A DNA stretch of 64,000 bases from an uncultured Armatimonadetes bacterium (lineage in GTDB: Bacteria > Armatimonadota > UBA5829 > DTJY01): assembly GCA_963717145.1 (NCBI GenBank), contig OY970325.1, forward strand, positions 2,272,001 through 2,336,000, in the 5' to 3' direction. The notes under the pieces were generated by a model. That model was not told the DNA's origin and did not search any database. It saw only the letters and a program-made list of their open reading frames with translations. The position numbers and the translations under genes are program-made. Each line of letters begins with the position of its first letter. Position 1 is the stretch's first letter. Positions 8,512-60,466 of the stretch are shown here, one piece after another.

Positions 8512-8541
8512 AGCATATCACGGACATCGCCGCTTTCGCAA
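8512..8541 (-). promoter_or_regulatory. sigma70-type promoter (MITE copy 1 target)
   Basis: TTGCGA-18 bp-TATGCT with extended TG, upstream of the 8484 gene. Confidence 0.6.
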
Positions 8542-8557
8542 TCATGCAGGAACCTCC

Positions 8558-8732
8558 GGGTGCATTTCTGCAGAGTGAGTCAGCCTCTCGTTATGCCACC
8601 AGAGTGGCTACTCGAGGAGAACGGTTGGGTAGCTTGCCAAGCTTCCCAAGCCCAAACCCGTCTAGTCGCGAGTAGGTTTCTCTGGAAACCATATCGAGAG
8701 ACGGTCGCCACCCACTCAACTCGAATGCACCC
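8558..8732. mobile_element. MITE copy 1 (175 bp, long imperfect TIRs, 9-bp TSD GGAACCTCC)
   Basis: Ends GGGTGCATT...AATGCACCC; direct repeats at 8549-8557 and 8733-8741; near-identical copy at 46244. Confidence 0.9.
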
Positions 8733-8794
8733 GGAACCTCCGGCCGAAATCAGCGTCCTATGGTATGTCGCGATGCATCCGAGAAAGAAAGGGT

Positions 8795-12432: not shown

Positions 12433-12519
12433 CCAGGAAACCTCCGTAGGGGCGATCCTTCAACGGTCGCCCGTCCGGCGGGCGACCGTTGAAGGATCGC
12501 CCCTACGGAGGTTTCCTGG
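12433..12519. repeat. GTAG-type REP doublet (inverted pair)
   Basis: GTAGGGGCGATCCTTCAACGGTCGCCC plus its reverse complement, with extended arms. Confidence 0.9.
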
Positions 12520-21413: not shown

Positions 21414-21425
21414 TGGCGAGATGCC

Positions 21426-21538
21426 GTAGGGGCGATCCTTCCACGGTCGCCCGGATATGATGGGCCATGCCTCACGCCGGGCGACCGTGGAAGGATCGCC
21501 CCTACGGATCACGGGAGGCCGTTGAAGGTCTCCCCTAC
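21426..21538. repeat. GTAG REP cluster (3 units)
   Basis: GTAGGGGCGATCCTTCCACGGTCGCCC pair plus GTAGGGGAGACCTTCAACGGCCTCCC on the minus strand. Confidence 0.9.
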
Positions 21539-22440: not shown

Positions 22441-22536
22441 TGGCCGTAGGGGCGATCCTTCTACGGTCGCCCGAAACCACGCTACGTGGGCGATTCGTGA
22501 CGCCGGGCGACCGTAGAAGGATCGCCCCTACGGCCA
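22441..22536. repeat. GTAG REP doublet
   Basis: GTAGGGGCGATCCTTCTACGGTCGCCC inverted pair. Confidence 0.9.
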
Positions 22537-23521: not shown

Positions 23522-23625
23522 GAGTGCGCCTTATGGAGTGCGGAAGCGGAGTCTGCGGAGCTTCCGCTTTGGCTCAAAAGCGGAAGCTCCGCAGACTCCG
23601 CTTCCGCACTCCATAAGGCGCACTC
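23522..23625. repeat. Perfect 49-bp-arm palindrome (TGGAGTGCGG type)
   Basis: Arms 23522-23570 and 23577-23625 are reverse complements. Confidence 0.9.
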
Positions 23626-30596: not shown

Positions 30597-30711
30597 ACCG
30601 TCAGTCCTGAGTTCGCCGGTGAATGACGGCGTGTAACGAAGGACGGCCTTGCTGCACCGAGCCGTCCTTCGTTACACGCCGTCATTCACCGGCGAACTCA
30701 GGACTGACGGT
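30597..30711. repeat. Perfect 51-bp-arm palindrome
   Basis: ACCGTCAGTCCTGAGT...GAAGGACGGC with a 13-nt loop; single diverged arm at 33198-33248. Confidence 0.9.
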
Positions 30712-33121: not shown

Positions 33122-33197
33122 TCCCTTCCGCCAACGACCACCGCTCTGCTCCGGGTTTTCTCCGTGTCCTCCGTGCCTCCGTGGTTCTATCGACATG

Positions 33198-33248
33198 GCC
33201 GCCCTTCGTTACATGCCGTCATTCACCGGCATACTCAGGGCTGACGGT
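33198..33248. repeat. Solo arm of the 30597 palindrome family
   Basis: GCCGCCCTTCGTTACATGCCGTCATTCACCGGCATACTCAGGGCTGACGGT matches 30661-30711. Confidence 0.85.
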
Positions 33249-37098: not shown

Positions 37099-39376
37099 AT
37101 GCGCGGGCGGGAACGAAGACGCACCCGGCGGCCTTTTCGAAGGCGGCTCCGGGTTTTCCTCATGTATATGGAGATCCTGGCGCTCGTGCTGCTTGGCGTA
37201 ATGCTTCTGAGCGTCGCCTGGGCGTTCTACAGCCTCTCGAAGAACCTCCCTTCCGGCCTCGACGTCGCAAAGTATTCCCCTACAGAGGCAACCAAGATCA
37301 TCTCGAGCTGACGGGGTCGTCCTCGCGAACGTCTACGAGGAGAACCGCGAGGTCGTGCCGATAACCGACATCCCCGCCGATCTCCAGCATGCGACGGTGG
37401 CAATCGAGGACAGCCGTTTCTACAATCATGTGGGCATCGACTTGCGCGGCATCGGTCGCGCGGTCGTACAGAACCTGCGAACCGGCCGCGTATCCCAGGG
37501 CGGGAGCACACTCACGCAGCAACTGGCCAGGAACGTCTATCTCACCCGTGAGAAAAAGCTCTCCAGGAAGCTGCAGGAGATCATCCTCGCCCTCAAGATC
37601 GAACGCAACTTCTCGAAAGAGCAGATCCTCGAGCTGTATCTGAACCAGGTCTTCTACGGCAGCGGCGCATACGGCGTTCAGACCGCCTCCAATATCTACT
37701 TCGGCAAGAACGTCAAGGACCTGACACTCGCGGAGTGCGCCCTGATCGCCGGCCTTCCGCAGAAACCGTCAGTGTATAGCCCTCACGAGAACCTTGATGA
37801 GGCGGTTGATCGGCGTGACGTAGTCCTGAGGCGCATGGAGGAACTCGGCTACATCACGGACAAGCAGTGCGAGTCGGCCCTGCAAGAGAAGGTACAACTC
37901 GCTGAGTTGAAGGCGAGAGGAATCGCCAAGTACAAGGCTCCGTCGTTCGTCACCTACGTCATCAAGGAGGTCACGAAGGTCCTCGGGCCGGATCAGGTCT
38001 ACCGAGGCGGTTTGAGGATCTACACAACCCTCAACTATGAGATGCAGGAGACGGCAGAGCGGGCTCTCAGAGAGGGCGTGGCGAGATCGAAGTATGGGAA
38101 CGTCAGCCAGGGAGCCCTGATATCGATCGATCCGCAGACGGGCTTCATCAAGGCGATGGTCGGCGGTGTCAATCCGGACTTTACGAAGGATCAGTTCAAC
38201 CGGGCGGTACAGGCCAAGAGACAACCGGGTTCCTCTTTCAAGGCTTTCGTCTATACCGCCGCAATCGACAACGGATACGATCCGTACTACCGCGTCTCGA
38301 ACTCGCGAATCACGTTCAACTCAGCCGGCTCGAAGCCGTGGACTCCCAAGAACTACAATGGGCGCTACGGCGGCACTTACTCTCTCACGCAGGCGGTCGC
38401 ACAGTCCATCAACATTGTCGCGGTCCGAGTGGCAGACAAGATCGGCATCGACGAGGTGATCAAGTATGCGCATCTGTGCGGCATCCAGTCTGACCTGCCG
38501 AGAAATCTCTCGCTGGCGCTCGGATCAGCGGTCGTCAGCCCGCTCGAGATCACCTCGGCCTACGGGGTATTCGCCGCACGAGGGATGAGAGCCGAACCGG
38601 TGGCGATCCTGAAGATCACCGACCGTGACGGCAGCGTTATCAAGGAGAACTCCTCCCAGCCGGTTCAGGTGCTCAGCCAGCAGACCGCGGACACGATGAG
38701 CGAGATGTTCCGCGCGGTAGTCACCTCGGGCACCGGGCGCAGAGTCCGCTACACCATCCCAAACGCTCACGGCAAGACCGGGACGACGAACGACGACAGG
38801 GACGCATGGTGGGTGGGTTATACGCCGGAACTGGTGACCGGAGTCTGGATCGGCAACGACAACTACGCCCCGATGAGAAACATCTGGGGCAGCACCGGCT
38901 GTCTGCCGATCTGGGAAGAGTTCATGAAGAAGGGCATCGAGGTCTATAAGCGAGAGCATGCTCCGAAAGGCGAGACGGCCTCAACCGCATCCCCGTCCGA
39001 GGACCGGAGCGACCGAGATCGGCGAAAGAATGACACTGAGCAGGATTCAGGGTCGCAGGCAATGATCACAATCTGCGCACAGAGCGGAGAACTCGCGTCG
39101 CCCAACTGCACGACAACGTATCAGGTCAAGCGAAGCGCGGCGACGGCTCAACTCGGTAGCTGCTCGATCCATGCACGGCGCCATGAGGAAACTCCGCCGG
39201 TTCCGCACGTAAACACGCCCGCTCCGACGGACAACCGGGACGAGTATGTGGCCCTGCCGATCTGTTCGGATTCCGGTCGGATAGCAACCATCTACTGTCC
39301 CGAGTGGAGAACGCATCGGTTCAAAGCGGGTGAAGCTCCCTCCCAGATCTGCACCACTCACCGGCCGAGGGAGTAG
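37099..39376 (+). CDS. Class A penicillin-binding protein (PBP1A family); frameshift near 37308
   Basis: EDSRFYNH, GGSTLTQQLARN, SSFK, SIN, KTG. The TM anchor lies in ORF 37099..37311. Confidence 0.92.
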
Positions 39377-39470
39377 GGGCGATCCTTCCACGGTCGCCCG
39401 TCCGTCGTCCGTAGGGGCGATCCTTCCACGGTCGCCCGGGGGACGGGAGGCCGTTGAAGGCCTCCCCTAC
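39373..39470. repeat. GTAG REP cluster between convergent genes
   Basis: Three units; the terminal GTAGs coincide with both stop codons. Confidence 0.9.
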
Positions 39471-40258: not shown

Positions 40259-40291
40259 TGAGTTCCTTGCTGTTCCTTCAACTCCCAAATC

Positions 40292-40361
40292 CTACTCGTA
40301 CTCCTAATCGTAATCGTACTCGAAAGGCCGCCGAGTACGATTAGGATTAGGAGTACGAGTA
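40292..40361. repeat. Hexamer tandem repeats in inverted arrangement
   Basis: (TACTCG/TAATCG)n ... (CGAGTA/GGATTA)n. Confidence 0.75.
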
Positions 40362-40368
40362 GGATTCG

Positions 40369-46197: not shown

Positions 46198-46227
46198 ATT
46201 ATACTACGCGCCGAATGAGGTTGTAAA
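46198..46227 (-). promoter_or_regulatory. sigma70-type promoter of the rpiB-glyA operon (MITE copy 2 target)
   Basis: TTTACA-18 bp-TATAAT. Confidence 0.7.
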
Positions 46228-46243
46228 GCGAGGAAGCTGCCCG

Positions 46244-46420
46244 CGGTGCATTTCCGCAGAGTGGGTGCAGCCTCTCGTTATGCCACCAGAGTGGCTATTC
46301 GAGGAGAACGGTTGGGTGGCTTGCCAAGCTTCCCAAGCACCAAACCCATCTAGTCTCGAGTAGGTTTCTCTGGAAACCATAACGAGAGACGGTCGCCACC
46401 CACTCAACTCGAATGCACCC
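46244..46420. mobile_element. MITE copy 2 (177 bp, 9-bp TSD AGCTGCCCG)
   Basis: Direct repeats at 46235-46243 and 46421-46429; same element as 8558-8732. Confidence 0.9.
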
Positions 46421-46452
46421 AGCTGCCCGTAAGAGTTCACGATTAGGGTTAG

Positions 46453-46528
46453 CGGCTGTCATTCTGAGCGTAGTGAAGAATCTGGCCGTGCGCAGACAGA
46501 TTCTTCACTACGCTCAGAATGACAGCCG
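46453..46528. repeat. Perfect 32-bp-arm palindrome (GTCATTCTGAGCG type)
   Basis: Arms 46453-46484 and 46497-46528. Confidence 0.88.
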
Positions 46529-54445: not shown

Positions 54446-54522
54446 GATCCGCTCCTTCCGGGCCGCCGATACTTTGACAAAGATTATACCACGATGTAGA
54501 ATATCCGGACAAGGACGAACGT

Positions 54523-54626
54523 GTAGGAGGGATTTGTCGGGAGGCCTTGTGCCCGATAATCCCGATTGTCGTGGCGGATCGGATCGGGATTATCGGGCAC
54601 AAGGCCTCCCGACAAATCCCTCCTGC
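54523..54626. repeat. GTAGGAGGG-type palindromic doublet
   Basis: GTAGGAGGGATTTGTCGGGAGGCCTTGTGCCCGATAATCCCGAT and its near-perfect reverse complement. Confidence 0.85.
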
Positions 54627-54683
54627 ATGTCTCGCCATGAGATACGTTCGCCTTGGATAGAGTGATTCTCCCGGAGGTACTCG

Positions 54684-57637: not shown

Positions 57638-60466
57638 TCACATAGGTCCCATAAGTCCCATAGGCCCTATCCGGTCCCCGAACGCCCGATACACGCGCAC
57701 GTCCGCGGACTGAGAGAGCGGCTTGCCGTCGAGACTGCGCGCGGTCATCATCGTCGGCTGATCGAGCTTCCGTCCGGCATGCTCCGTCGCGTAGAAGGCG
57801 ACGTATGTCGGGCTCTCGATGAGGAAGCCGTACTTCGGAAGGACCGCGTTCTTCGTCCGATAGGGCTGATCGCCGTAGTTGACGGTGACCATCACGTCCC
57901 CGAACCGCGTGCGCTCGACCGAGCGGTCCGGCGTGAGGAACTCGTGGCTCGTCATCGTGGTGAACGCAGTCAGTCGGGCGAGCGGTGAGAGCACCTCGTA
58001 CGTGTTCTTGATGAAGCGGTCGGTCTCATTGAGCGGCGACGACTCGAGGTCGGCGAAGGAGAAGCCCTCGACGTTCCCTGCCCCGGCCTGCTCGAAGTAG
58101 AGGTGCGCCCCGAACTGGTAGACCGGCATCTCGGCGTACAGGATGTGATCGAGGACGTACTCCGGTCGGGACGCGCTCGCCCGGTCGCCTTGATGCGTGT
58201 ACAGGTTGATGCAGTCGCCGTAGACCATCTCGAACAGCGGGATGACGATCTCGCGCTCGGGGCGCTGAGTCTTGTGGCTCAGGATTCCCTCGAAGTAGTC
58301 CGCGCACGGAACCGCCCACTCCTGGCCCTCCTCGCTGCCGAGGAGGCCGAACGTCTCGCGCGCGTAGTTGCTCAATGCCGTCTTCCAGCGCATGTCATCG
58401 GTCCGGCTGATCGGATGATCCTCTGAGAAGCACTCCTGCAAGCCCGCCGCGAAGGTCGTGTCGATGAAGTAGATCGTCGGGTCGAAGAGCCGCTTCACCT
58501 CGGGCAGGTTCTGATCCCTCTTCGCCAGTTCGAGCGCCTTCTTCGAGCACGTCACATACGCCTGACCGCCGGCCCAGACGCCGCCCATCGCCGGCGAGCC
58601 GTCCACGTGCTTCATGAGGAAGCTCTCGTCCCACGAGGGGGCGTCCTTGTACATGTCCTGGTAGTTGTCGTGCAGGCCGAAGAGGTAGTCCAATGCTTTG
58701 ACCCTCTTCCCGCAGTCGATCAGGCCGTCGTTCCCGCCGCATTCGGGAGCGGCGGGGAGGATGTCGGGGTGCTGGTTGTCGTACCCGCGATGGATCCATC
58801 CCGCGAGAACCATCATCGCCTTGTCGATGCCAACATCAGCCCTCAGATGCTCGGCGATCCGGGCGCATTCCTCGAAGGTGTAGCCGAAGTCGACGCGATC
58901 CTCGGTCGACTGATTCCACCTTGTGCCGGCGAGTCGTCGGGAGAGCACGAACGGCTTGAAGTCTGCCGCGCCGATGATCTTCTCCACCTGCGGCCTGGCC
59001 TCGATCTTGTCCTGCAGGGTCGAGAGGAAGCCCTTCTCCTTCGCGGCGTCGCGGTACGCGTGGGCGATCTCGGAGTATCCACCCTTGCCCAGCGGCCTCA
59101 GGACGAACGATCGCGCGGTTCGCTGCAGTTCCAGCGAGACGGAGACCATCCCGTGGCCGGGGACGTTCGGCATGTCGGGCCACGAGCGCTCGACCTCCAG
59201 GTCCGCGTACGGATCGTCCCACCAGACGAGCATCGCCGAGCCGTTCTTGACGACGCCCGCCATCGCCATGGAGTACGATCGGAAGTTGCTGTAGGCGGTA
59301 TAGCGGTTGAGAGTGGTAAGCCCTTCGCCCGCGGGGATCATCAGTCCGAGGCGGTACGGGACCGCGAGGTATCCGCCCTCGGTGTCGGTCGCCCAGAGCG
59401 ACTTGTCGAGCAGTCGGACCGCCTCCACCTTCCACTCGCCCAGTACGTCCGTAGGGGAGGCCTTCAACGGCCTCCCGTCCTCGGGCAACGGCCTCCCGTC
59501 CTGGGCGACCGTTGAAGGATCGCCCCTACCATCCACTGCGTAGCTGAACTTCAATCCCTTCCCATCCGGGAGCAACTCGATCCAGACCCCGATCGTCGCG
59601 CCCGGATCACCCTCACCCCAACCCTCTCCCTCAGAGGGCGAGGGAGCACCAGACCCCCTCGCCCTCTGAGGGAGAGGGTTGGGGTGAGGGTGGTCCGACG
59701 CCGGCCTGCAGACGACGTTGATCCGCCTGCCACCCGTCGCCAGCATCTCGACGACCGCCAGCCGCGCGACGACGGTCCGCTCCCCGTTCGAGAGGCGCAC
59801 TTCCCCGAGGCCCTCATGCGCCGGGTTCGAATGCCAGACCTCGTCGGAGCGCTTGTCCCTGAGCCTCCACGTGCCCTTGCTCCGTGATATCGCGAACCGG
59901 AGCGTCTCATCCTCGATCACGACCGAATCCGCGATCCCCGACCTGAGCGCCTCGGACCGGCGGCTGACTTCCTCGGCGGTCATCTTCGGGGGCACGGCTA
60001 CGAGGTCCGGAGCGCCCTTCGAGACCTCGATCTCCGCGGGGTACTGGTCGCAGAACCGGCCTCTATCGTTGTAGATCCCGATGTGCAGGAAGTACTTCCC
60101 TTCCGCGATGCCCTGAGGGAAGTCGAGCGAGTACGCGCCATCCACGATCTCCATCCCCGCCTCCCACGCGCTGGTCGGAATCGCGGGCATGTGGTCCGCC
60201 TGAAAAACGATGTGGCGGCAATCCTTGTCGGGATGCTCCAGGTGTACGAAGATGTAGCAGTCCCCCGGCGACGGAGCGTTCCCCTCGTTGCGGAACTTCA
60301 ACGTGAGCGCGACTTCCCCGCCCGGCCTCACTTCCTGTGCGCTCAGTTGCGCTTCGATGCATACCGGCTTGAACAACGGCGTCGTCTCCTCCCCATGCGC
60401 CCGATCCGGCATCGCGCCGATCAGGGCAAGGTATGTGGCAAGCAGGACCAGGTGCGATAGTCTCAT
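57638..60466 (-). CDS. Secreted DUF5696/GH129-like glycoside hydrolase
   Basis: GYDNQHPD, LHDNYQDMY.DAPSW, YFIDT, GSEEG, IPLFEMVY.DC. Confidence 0.65.
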   Translation of the reverse strand: MRLSHLVLLATYLALIGAMPDRAHGEETTPLFKPVCIEAQLSAQEVRPGGEVALTLKFRNEGNAPSPGDCYIFVHLEHPDKDCRHIVFQADHMPAIPTSAWEAGMEIVDGAYSLDFPQGIAEGKYFLHIGIYNDRGRFCDQYPAEIEVSKGAPDLVAVPPKMTAEEVSRRSEALRSGIADSVVIEDETLRFAISRSKGTWRLRDKRSDEVWHSNPAHEGLGEVRLSNGERTVVARLAVVEMLATGGRRINVVCRPASDHPHPNPLPQRARGSGAPSPSEGEGWGEGDPGATIGVWIELLPDGKGLKFSYAVDGRGDPSTVAQDGRPLPEDGRPLKASPTDVLGEWKVEAVRLLDKSLWATDTEGGYLAVPYRLGLMIPAGEGLTTLNRYTAYSNFRSYSMAMAGVVKNGSAMLVWWDDPYADLEVERSWPDMPNVPGHGMVSVSLELQRTARSFVLRPLGKGGYSEIAHAYRDAAKEKGFLSTLQDKIEARPQVEKIIGAADFKPFVLSRRLAGTRWNQSTEDRVDFGYTFEECARIAEHLRADVGIDKAMMVLAGWIHRGYDNQHPDILPAAPECGGNDGLIDCGKRVKALDYLFGLHDNYQDMYKDAPSWDESFLMKHVDGSPAMGGVWAGGQAYVTCSKKALELAKRDQNLPEVKRLFDPTIYFIDTTFAAGLQECFSEDHPISRTDDMRWKTALSNYARETFGLLGSEEGQEWAVPCADYFEGILSHKTQRPEREIVIPLFEMVYGDCINLYTHQGDRASASRPEYVLDHILYAEMPVYQFGAHLYFEQAGAGNVEGFSFADLESSPLNETDRFIKNTYEVLSPLARLTAFTTMTSHEFLTPDRSVERTRFGDVMVTVNYGDQPYRTKNAVLPKYGFLIESPTYVAFYATEHAGRKLDQPTMMTARSLDGKPLSQSADVRVYRAFGDRIGPMGLMGPM
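59451..59529. repeat. GTAG REP doublet in frame within a CDS
   Basis: Same units as the intergenic REPs. Confidence 0.88.
59609..59691. repeat. CCCTCACCCC-type palindrome in frame within a CDS
   Basis: ACCCTCACCCCAACCCTCTCCCTCAGAGGGCGAGGG and its reverse complement. Confidence 0.88.

Follow-up and report, generated by a model that had tools for sequence, protein, structure and literature searches.

Introduction

Why does a short non-coding repeat end at the same distance from one predicted promoter after another, and by what enzyme could it have been placed there? This question is raised by a 175-bp element in the genome of an uncultured Armatimonadetes bacterium, found in a stretch of 64,000 nucleotides that is called the window here (genome positions 2272001-2336000). 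The genome is a single contig of 5.37 Mb with 60.6% G+C; coordinates are those of the window unless marked as genome positions. In bacteria, few mobile elements direct their transposition to promoters, and for the mechanism there is so far no more than a proposal, namely contact with the transcription initiation complex. An initial annotation of the window had read the element as a promoter-targeting, fold-back MITE, and we have followed this reading through the copies of the element, their junctions and their relatives.

Two copies of the element in the window

Copy 1 lies on the minus strand at 8558..8732 (IRL to IRR, in the orientation of the insertion sequence described below), is 175 bp long, starts with GGGTGCATT and ends with AATGCACCC. 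Its strand is given by nhmmer (200 bits on the minus strand vs. 47 on the plus strand), and its IRR-type end is 8558: the IRR-type terminal repeat (8558..8584, minus strand) is the promoter-proximal end, and the IRL-type terminal repeat (8706..8732, minus strand) the promoter-distal end. A perfect 9-bp target-site duplication, GGAACCTCC, is read directly on the promoter side (8549..8557) and on the distal side (8733..8741). A -35-like hexamer TTGCGA (8536..8541, minus strand) and, after an 18-nt spacer, a -10-like hexamer TATGCT (8512..8517, minus strand; 4/6 consensus matches) form a predicted promoter that reads away from the element; the 16 bp between its -35 and the element end (8542-8557) consist of 8542-8548 and the duplication. 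Direct reading has thus borne out the earlier description of a 175-bp element with a perfect 9-bp duplication, 16 bp from an away-reading -35-like box. Because it scores 8/12 and the rule of the consensus scanner is 9/12, this predicted promoter was left uncalled by the scanner and is weak by itself. The setting is intergenic, with divergent genes on both sides: a 95-aa membrane-like ORF without a Pfam match on the IRR side (8484-8197), at which the TTGCGA/TATGCT reading is aimed, and an AhpC/TSA-redoxin gene on the IRL side. An exact 29-mer over the promoter-side junction, used as a probe related to an empty site, had 0 matches in metagenome contigs.

Copy 2, which is 95% identical to copy 1, occupies 46244..46420 on the minus strand (177 bp, IRR-type end at 46244). 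Its 9-bp duplication, AGCTGCCCG, differs from that of copy 1 and is read directly at 46235..46243 on the promoter side and at 46421..46429 on the distal side. The predicted promoter TTTACA-18 nt-TATAAT (46198..46227, minus strand) was called by the scanner with 11/12 matches; TTTACA (46227-46222) is 16 bp from the element end, and TATAAT is at 46203-46198. It faces an rpiB-type gene (46190-45759; PF02502, 172.6 bits), which is followed by a long ORF (45622-44285), and on the other side of the copy there are a perfect hairpin with 32-nt arms (46453-46528) and a gene for a BNR-repeat protein. The claim that the copy at 46244 has another duplication with the same spacing and orientation therefore stands (46244-46420). 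Copies 1 and 2 are the only MITE copies within the 64-kb window.

Other repeats were also seen in the window. Palindromic repeats of the form GTAGGGGCGATCCTTC...GGTCGCCCG, with a REP-type look, are located at 12433-12519, 21424-21507, 22441-22536, 39370-39470, and 59451-59531. Long hairpins, perfect or nearly so (arms 32-51 nt, loops 6-16 nt), are located at 30597-30711, 23522-23625, 54519-54630, 59603-59697, 40288-40366, and 46453-46528; the last of these is separated from MITE copy 2 by 33 bp, and the arm of one long hairpin recurs at 33194-33248. The segment 34561-34742 contains direct repeats of about 21 bp with partly palindromic units of the GTGCGTTACTTCCC type.

The MITE family and its partner insertion sequence

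When the MITE was compared with the whole genome by blastn, 51 HSPs were obtained, 23 of which are full-length copies, each at its own site; a profile built from the full-length copies added about nine partial or rearranged loci. The copies are 165-205 bp long and carry no transposase gene, and the ORFs that cross them are chance ones only. They form several subfamilies, with nearest-neighbour identities of 78-99% and an all-pair median of 87%. A perfect 9-mer duplication is present in 12 of the 22 distinct junction pairs, and five more pairs have one mismatch. At one locus (genome 4329477-4329929) the inner arm has grown to about six tandem units of 68 bp, and the IRR end is still 16 bp from a TTGACA.

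The initial annotation had proposed looking for an insertion sequence (IS) with the same GGGTGCATT ends and a Mutator-type transposase, and such an IS is present in 12 genome copies. The ISLre2 model NF033529, run over the genome, matched 12 places with about 100 bits each, the model NF033572 gave the same 12, and a GGGTGCATTCGCG terminus lies about 360 bp ahead of each ISLre2-model match. By megablast the unit was delimited as a 1433-bp IS with 12 copies, 11 of them at at least 99.8% identity and one at 91%. None of the 12 lies in the window, and no ISKra4-type transposase match was found there, in agreement with the earlier statement that the window holds no transposase. The IS ends are GGGTGCATTCGCGTTGAGTGGGTAGC... 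and ...GCTCTACCCACTCTGAGGAATTCCACCC; its IRs are about 26 bp long with the pattern GGGTG...CACCC and are unequal, being complementary at roughly 20 of 27 positions.

For the 431-aa transposase ORF, the ISKra4-family model NF033572 gives 274.5 bits (cut-off 205) and PF06782 gives 43.4 bits (cut-off 24.3). Membership in the ISLre2 family (p-MULT 3) was rejected, as NF033529 gives 98.9 bits with a cut-off of 200. The earlier placement in the ISLre2/TnGBS group accordingly holds for the insertion mechanism and the 9-bp repeats, but not for the family (ISKra4, 274.5 bits; ISLre2, 98.9 vs. 200). When the transposase was aligned with eight relatives (nine sequences), D199, D270, D291-x2-H294, and E383 were invariant; D199/D270/E383 together with D291-x2-H294 fit the DDE triad plus D(2)H signature of prokaryotic Mutator-like transposases, in which they would have the catalytic role. 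According to the accessible part of PMC3942029, the p-MULT signature is a DDE triad in which C/D-x2-H closely follows the second D and a long insert precedes E, in the ISKra4 group the IRs (18-39 bp) have a conserved terminal C and the direct repeats span 8-9 bp, and ISKra4-group entries in Table S1 show GGGTG...CACCC ends with 9-bp direct repeats. Judged from model scores and motifs, the partner IS is an ISKra4-group (p-MULT 4) element with a predicted Mutator-like DDE transposase.

Duplications of the IS are perfect 9-mers in 9 of 12 junction pairs. The three pairs without a matching repeat share flanks among themselves, which points to recombination between copies. The IS copies at genome 4910219 and 4946141 have an identical 50-nt flank, and those at 4915370 and 4946141 are without matching duplications (region 4910219-4947573).

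On a sister copy of the MITE (genome 4132899), the IRL-type end agrees with the IS IRL at 24 of 27 positions and the IRR-type end with the IS IRR at about 22 of 28. Since its promoter-far end matches IRL and its promoter-side end IRR, the MITE has kept two distinct IS ends. These matches to a 1433-bp ISKra4-type IS agree with the earlier view of a non-autonomous derivative of a Mutator-like DDE element with 9-bp duplications, and we consider it very probable that the 175-bp unit is a MITE of the 1433-bp ISKra4-group IS, with imperfect TIRs around a non-coding hairpin-rich core, moved in trans. The MITE IRs differ from the present IS IRs at several positions; because of these differences, and because the MITEs (median identity 87%) are older than the burst of the IS (99.9%), the present IS may not be the source of the enzyme.

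The fold-back structure also claimed for the element is real in terms of predicted folding: copy 1, folded as DNA, gives -38.1 kcal/mol vs. a shuffle mean of -22 (z = -5.6). Such a strong fold would also be expected if the unit were immobile and had a native regulatory role in a class of promoters, as a structured RNA or as DNA to which proteins bind, and the side hairpins do show compensatory changes between copies and genera, with the paired substitutions GTTTC/GAAAC, CGCTC/GAGCG, GCCAC/GTGGC, and GCCGC/GCGGC, and GUCUC/GAGAC changed to GUGUC/GACAC. However, copies are flanked by their own 9-bp duplications, the terminal repeats match an IS of the same genome, and the duplication does not include the promoter. 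Nor are the genes downstream related to each other (a small membrane ORF for copy 1, an rpiB-type gene for copy 2), and no credible Rfam match supports a structured RNA: the Rfam search at copy 1 gave none, and its one snoRNA match lies elsewhere (E = 0.34). We therefore regard an immobile regulatory module as scarcely credible, and the unit is treated below as an ISKra4-type MITE.

A fixed distance to complete predicted promoters

Junctions were oriented by IR type and one duplicated MITE flank was dropped, which left 34 distinct IRR flanks (22 MITE, 12 IS). A strict promoter was defined as a -35 and a -10 hexamer, each with at least 4/6 matches, that stand 16-19 nt apart, A2 and T6 being required in the -10. 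At 15-17 bp, such a promoter is found in 19/34 IRR flanks (MITE 14/22, IS 5/12), in 2/34 IRL flanks, and in 529 of 200,000 random positions (0.26%). The genome-wide tabulation of copies suggested by the initial annotation hence yields perfect 9-bp repeats in 12/22 MITE pairs and a strict promoter 15-17 bp from IRR in 14/22. TTG alone occurs at offsets 15-17 in 24/34 IRR flanks, 19 of them at exactly 16, in 4/34 IRL flanks, and at a random rate of 3.3% (binomial P = 2e-28). For the IS copies by themselves, TTG is 15-17 bp from IRR in 10/12 and exactly 16 bp in 9/12. Distances of strict promoters from IRR are 14 bp (1), 15 bp (1), 16 bp (15), and 17 bp (3), and the other 3-bp bins from 0 to 26 hold 0-1 each. 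MITE and IS have in common their ends, the 9-bp duplication, the 15-17-bp IRR offset, and the orientation bias.

The information content of the aligned flanks is near zero in columns 1-16, which comprise the 9-bp duplication and the next 7 bp, and peaks in columns 17-22 (TTGACA) and 41-46. This lack of signal over the first 16 columns supports the earlier proposal that promoter geometry rather than sequence is targeted. A properly spaced -10 accompanies 16 of 18 targeted TTGAC sites vs. 676 of 8289 TTGAC sites genome-wide (8.2%), and because of this difference we conclude that the targets are whole predicted promoters, not a DNA word. A test for gene starts, in which an ORF of at least 100 aa was sought downstream, was dropped as non-discriminating at 60.6% G+C (IRR 28/35, IRL 31/35, random 79%).

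The rule has exceptions: at 15-17 bp, a strict promoter is absent from 15 of the 34 IRR flanks and TTG from 10 of them. For the MITEs at genome 4304034 and 4317523 the predicted promoter is 16 bp from the IRL end instead, so that one orientation is strongly preferred but not invariable, and for the MITE copy at 4132899 the best promoter is at 8 bp. Other rule-breaking flanks, those of the IS at 1487608 and of the MITEs at 2240791 and 2676133 (one common flank), run into a second, rve-type IS described below. When this IS was removed in silico together with one of its two duplication copies, the 16-bp spacing was restored for both the ISKra4-type IS and the MITE; two apparent exceptions are thus explained, because the second IS landed between the element and its promoter. 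Next to the common flank of the MITEs at 2240791 and 2676133, between which the window is situated, are copies of the rve-type IS in inverted orientation; recombination or inversion between repeats is indicated by the flanks shared here and among the IS copies.

Replicates were sought beyond the 34 junctions. Seven further partial or rearranged MITE loci of the same genome have an IRR end; a TTG-headed -35-like box is at 16 bp in four, and the others have an extended -10 in register, a promoter at 10 bp, and no promoter, one locus each. In a relative belonging to another genus (G006), about 25 MITE-like matches of 70-82% identity were found (e.g., L010, L013, L017, L056, and L057). Six of these are full copies: a -35/-10 pair stands at 16-17 bp in three, including one with a perfect 9-bp repeat, and the others have a TGnTATAAT in register, a -35 at 6 bp, and no promoter, respectively. 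No ISKra4-family match was found in G006, a 99%-complete draft of 80 contigs; its MITEs may be orphaned, or the IS may be unassembled there. On one metagenome contig the IRR end is 17 bp from TTGACC. In a Desulfobulbus-labelled MAG, which belongs to another phylum, an IS with a 68%-identical transposase is followed by its 9-bp duplication GTTTGAAAC, 7 bp, TTGACA, 17 nt, and TATACT, which puts the -35 at 16 bp; in an Armatimonadetes-labelled MAG, an IS with a 66%-identical transposase has a -35 at 8 bp.

Could the relation to promoters have been made by purifying selection, which spared genes and promoters after near-random insertion? The surviving copies are all in places that the host can tolerate, as would be expected, and the complete promoters at 16/18 targeted TTGAC sites could also have been favoured by selection. 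Selection against other insertions could indeed sharpen the pattern, but a fixed 16-bp offset could not arise by selection alone: 15 of the 20 strict hits at single offsets 10-23 are at exactly 16 and the adjoining 3-bp bins hold 0-1, a single-base peak that is beyond selection. The consistent orientation of a gene-less element is likewise left unexplained by selection, and the IS copies, being 99.9% identical, have had too little time for purging. An origin of the pattern by selection after near-random insertion is for these reasons very improbable, and targeted insertion remains our reading.

In the proposed mechanism, the DDE transposase of the IS, or that of a close predecessor, would act in trans on the MITE, which has no transposase of its own. 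By analogy with the family, the N-terminal domain of the transposase would bind the IRs, and a staggered 9-bp cut would be made 8-16 bp upstream of the -35. The target would be seen as a promoter, probably one occupied by holoenzyme, with tethering to the bound polymerase, and not as a DNA word. Orientation may be set by unequal recognition of the two IRs; that the gene-less MITE keeps the orientation of the IS fits with the IRs alone carrying this information. Transposition would proceed by copy-out via a circular intermediate, as expected from the family (PMC3942029), and 6-10 bp would be expected between the ends in such a circle.

Insertion of this kind likely avoids coding sequence and leaves the promoter core intact. 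With coding sequence, -35, -10, and the first 16 bp upstream spared in this way, the cost for the host should be low. The earlier note had placed the element in the UP-element position, and this is retained for the distal part but not for the rest, the junction being about 16 bp upstream of the -35 hexamer; with the UP-element coordinates that we assume, only the distal UP part would be replaced by the insertion. For annotation, the 16-bp rule makes each copy a pointer to a likely promoter.

The hairpin core and a GIY-YIG gene

The centre of the MITE (about 115-130 nt) consists of two inverted hairpin arms and a spacer. The same core, lacking any IS-type ends, turns up in various intergenic regions, namely genome 3319624-3319741, genome 4323284-4323963, and four loci of G006 (L059-L062); one end-less copy is upstream of an ORF that was read by eye as a homoserine O-acetyltransferase-like start. 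At genome 4323284-4323963 the arms bracket a single 114-aa GIY-YIG gene (PF01541, 63 bits), and no further GIY-YIG gene of the same type was found in the source genome. The gene and its arms may constitute a repeat-plus-nuclease module. Its homologue in G006 (72% identical; L065:1138-2321) is also bracketed by arms, and the neighbours of that homologue map elsewhere in the source genome.

These observations bear on an alternative origin, in which the hairpin-doublet core is itself mobile or selected in a REPIN-like manner, perhaps served by the GIY-YIG protein, and gained ISKra4-type ends once, so that the MITE is a chimera. The end-less cores of both genomes (3319624-3319741, 4323284-4323963, and G006 L059-L062) have flanks that are unrelated to the IRs rather than decayed from them, and the bracketing of both the 114-aa GIY-YIG gene and its 72%-identical, non-syntenic G006 homologue also speaks for this origin. 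However, the end-less copies are only a handful, no transposition signature was found at them, the nhmmer matches around the G006 gene are weak (15-18 bits), and two other GIY-YIG homologues (L066 and L067) have no arms nearby. Rfam searches at the end-less core loci gave sub-threshold matches of microRNA type only, two of which overlap core or array DNA, and none reaches the gathering score. That the core is itself the mobile or selected unit is hence rather unlikely, though it is a serious alternative, and it does not conflict with mobilisation of the MITE by an ISKra4-type transposase. As a lead and not a result, the end-less copies suggest that the MITE arose when IS ends were put around an older hairpin repeat.

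A second IS that abuts predicted promoters

The rve-type IS that explains two of the exceptions above is 1362 bp long and is present in 22 near-identical copies, all outside the window (e.g., genome 1489057-1490418). In its 394-aa transposase, which is of the retroviral-integrase type, the rve core PF00665 scores 38 bits, the IS481 model gives 46 bits vs. a cut-off of 224, and the element is far under the cut-off of every curated IS-family model. A perfect 5-bp duplication is present in 17 of the 22 copies. At the transposase-proximal end, a strict promoter that reads away from the IS begins right after these 5 bp in 16/22 copies, with 0-1 at other offsets, and position 6 of the flanks is T in 21/22; at the other end there is no strict promoter at offset 5.

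Metagenomic homologues of this IS run into the thousands. Relatives of it were collected from 19 loci in other genomes of the phylum, together with a 62% paralogue in the source genome; 12 have a recognisable end, and nine have a flank of at least 40 nt. In these nine readable junctions, both hexamers are at offset 5 in five, the -10 is in register in two, and neither is present in two. A pattern search for MITE derivatives of this IS, with paired ends 60-700 bp apart, found 0, and literature searches found no report of promoter targeting by an IS of this type.

If homing of the rve-type IS is undescribed, it would be a convergent second origin of the trait and would speak for the initiation complex on the promoter, rather than a DNA word, as the target of both systems; in that case the rve-type IS at the -35 edge may outweigh the MITE finding. 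The joint picture, in which two unrelated transposase systems home to sigma-70-type promoters at their own offsets (16 bp, and abutting the -35), both have hit one and the same promoter in two independent cases, and the MITE is perhaps a chimera of IS ends and a REPIN-like core with a GIY-YIG link, is put forward tentatively, at somewhat less than even confidence.

Comparison with known systems

The core of the MITE resembles REPIN/RAYT systems, which were reportedly described by Bertels and Rainey in 2011, in its two inverted hairpin arms with a spacer and in the presence of end-less copies or single arms around a single-copy nuclease-type gene. The protein of REPIN/RAYT systems is the RAYT tyrosine transposase, whereas a GIY-YIG protein is present here, and the link is a lead only; a search for literature linking GIY-YIG with REP, REPIN, or RAYT found none among the matches listed.

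TnGBS/ISLre2 elements (p-MULT 3) are alike in inserting 15-17 bp upstream of the -35 with IRR by the promoter, in their 8-9-bp repeats, and in the proposed interaction with the initiation complex, with IR asymmetry setting the orientation. They are unlike the present IS, since its transposase fails the ISLre2 model, conjugation genes are absent, and the host is not a Firmicute.

That ISKra4-group ISs target promoters at a distance of 16 bp was published in 2014 (Guerillot et al., PMC3942029), and the targeting itself is therefore already known, being printed there for part of the ISKra4 group. In the accessible part of that paper, 13 ISKra4-group (p-MULT 4) ISs have promoter specificity in both orientations, and its authors relate this to IRs that are almost fully complementary (83-100%). 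The mechanism that they put forward is contact with the initiation complex, and they ascribe orientation to asymmetry of the IRs. The partner IS is like members of this group (e.g., ISKra2, ISKra4, ISAcce1, and ISCasp2) in family, GGGTG...CACCC ends, 9-bp repeats, and an offset of about 16 bp from -35 boxes of the sigma-A/sigma-70 type. In contrast to the near-perfect IRs and both orientations given for the ISKra4 group in PMC3942029, the IS here has unequal IRs and a strong bias, as in p-MULT 3. Armatimonadota, the phylum to which the present host is assigned and which also figures in the names of the nearest transposase relatives, is absent from the p-MULT 4 host phyla in the accessible part of PMC3942029, and MITEs have 0 occurrences in that part of its main text. 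Among the matches listed for ISKra4 literature there was no MITE paper. In the accessible parts of the two 2024 texts, the main text of a prokaryotic MITE review (PMC10969869) has 0 occurrences of ISKra4, ISLre2, IS256, and Mutator, and bioRxiv 10.1101/2024.01.18.576219 has 0 occurrences of ISKra4, ISLre2, and IS256.

The additions made here are an ISKra4-group IS whose IRs are unequal and whose orientation is strongly biased, a gene-less derivative with the same bias, and a host phylum outside the p-MULT 4 list of that paper. Because the gene-less derivative keeps the orientation bias, the information lies in the ends; an IS and a gene-less derivative with a common offset and orientation support the published idea of IR asymmetry, and the trait is extended to a little-studied phylum. 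The MITE is like bacterial MITEs generally, as far as these are covered by the accessible part of the review PMC10969869, in being short, non-coding, multicopy, and hairpin-forming, with the TIRs and the duplication length of a parent IS. Its target, however, is of another kind, being defined by the distance to a promoter instead of by a short DNA word.
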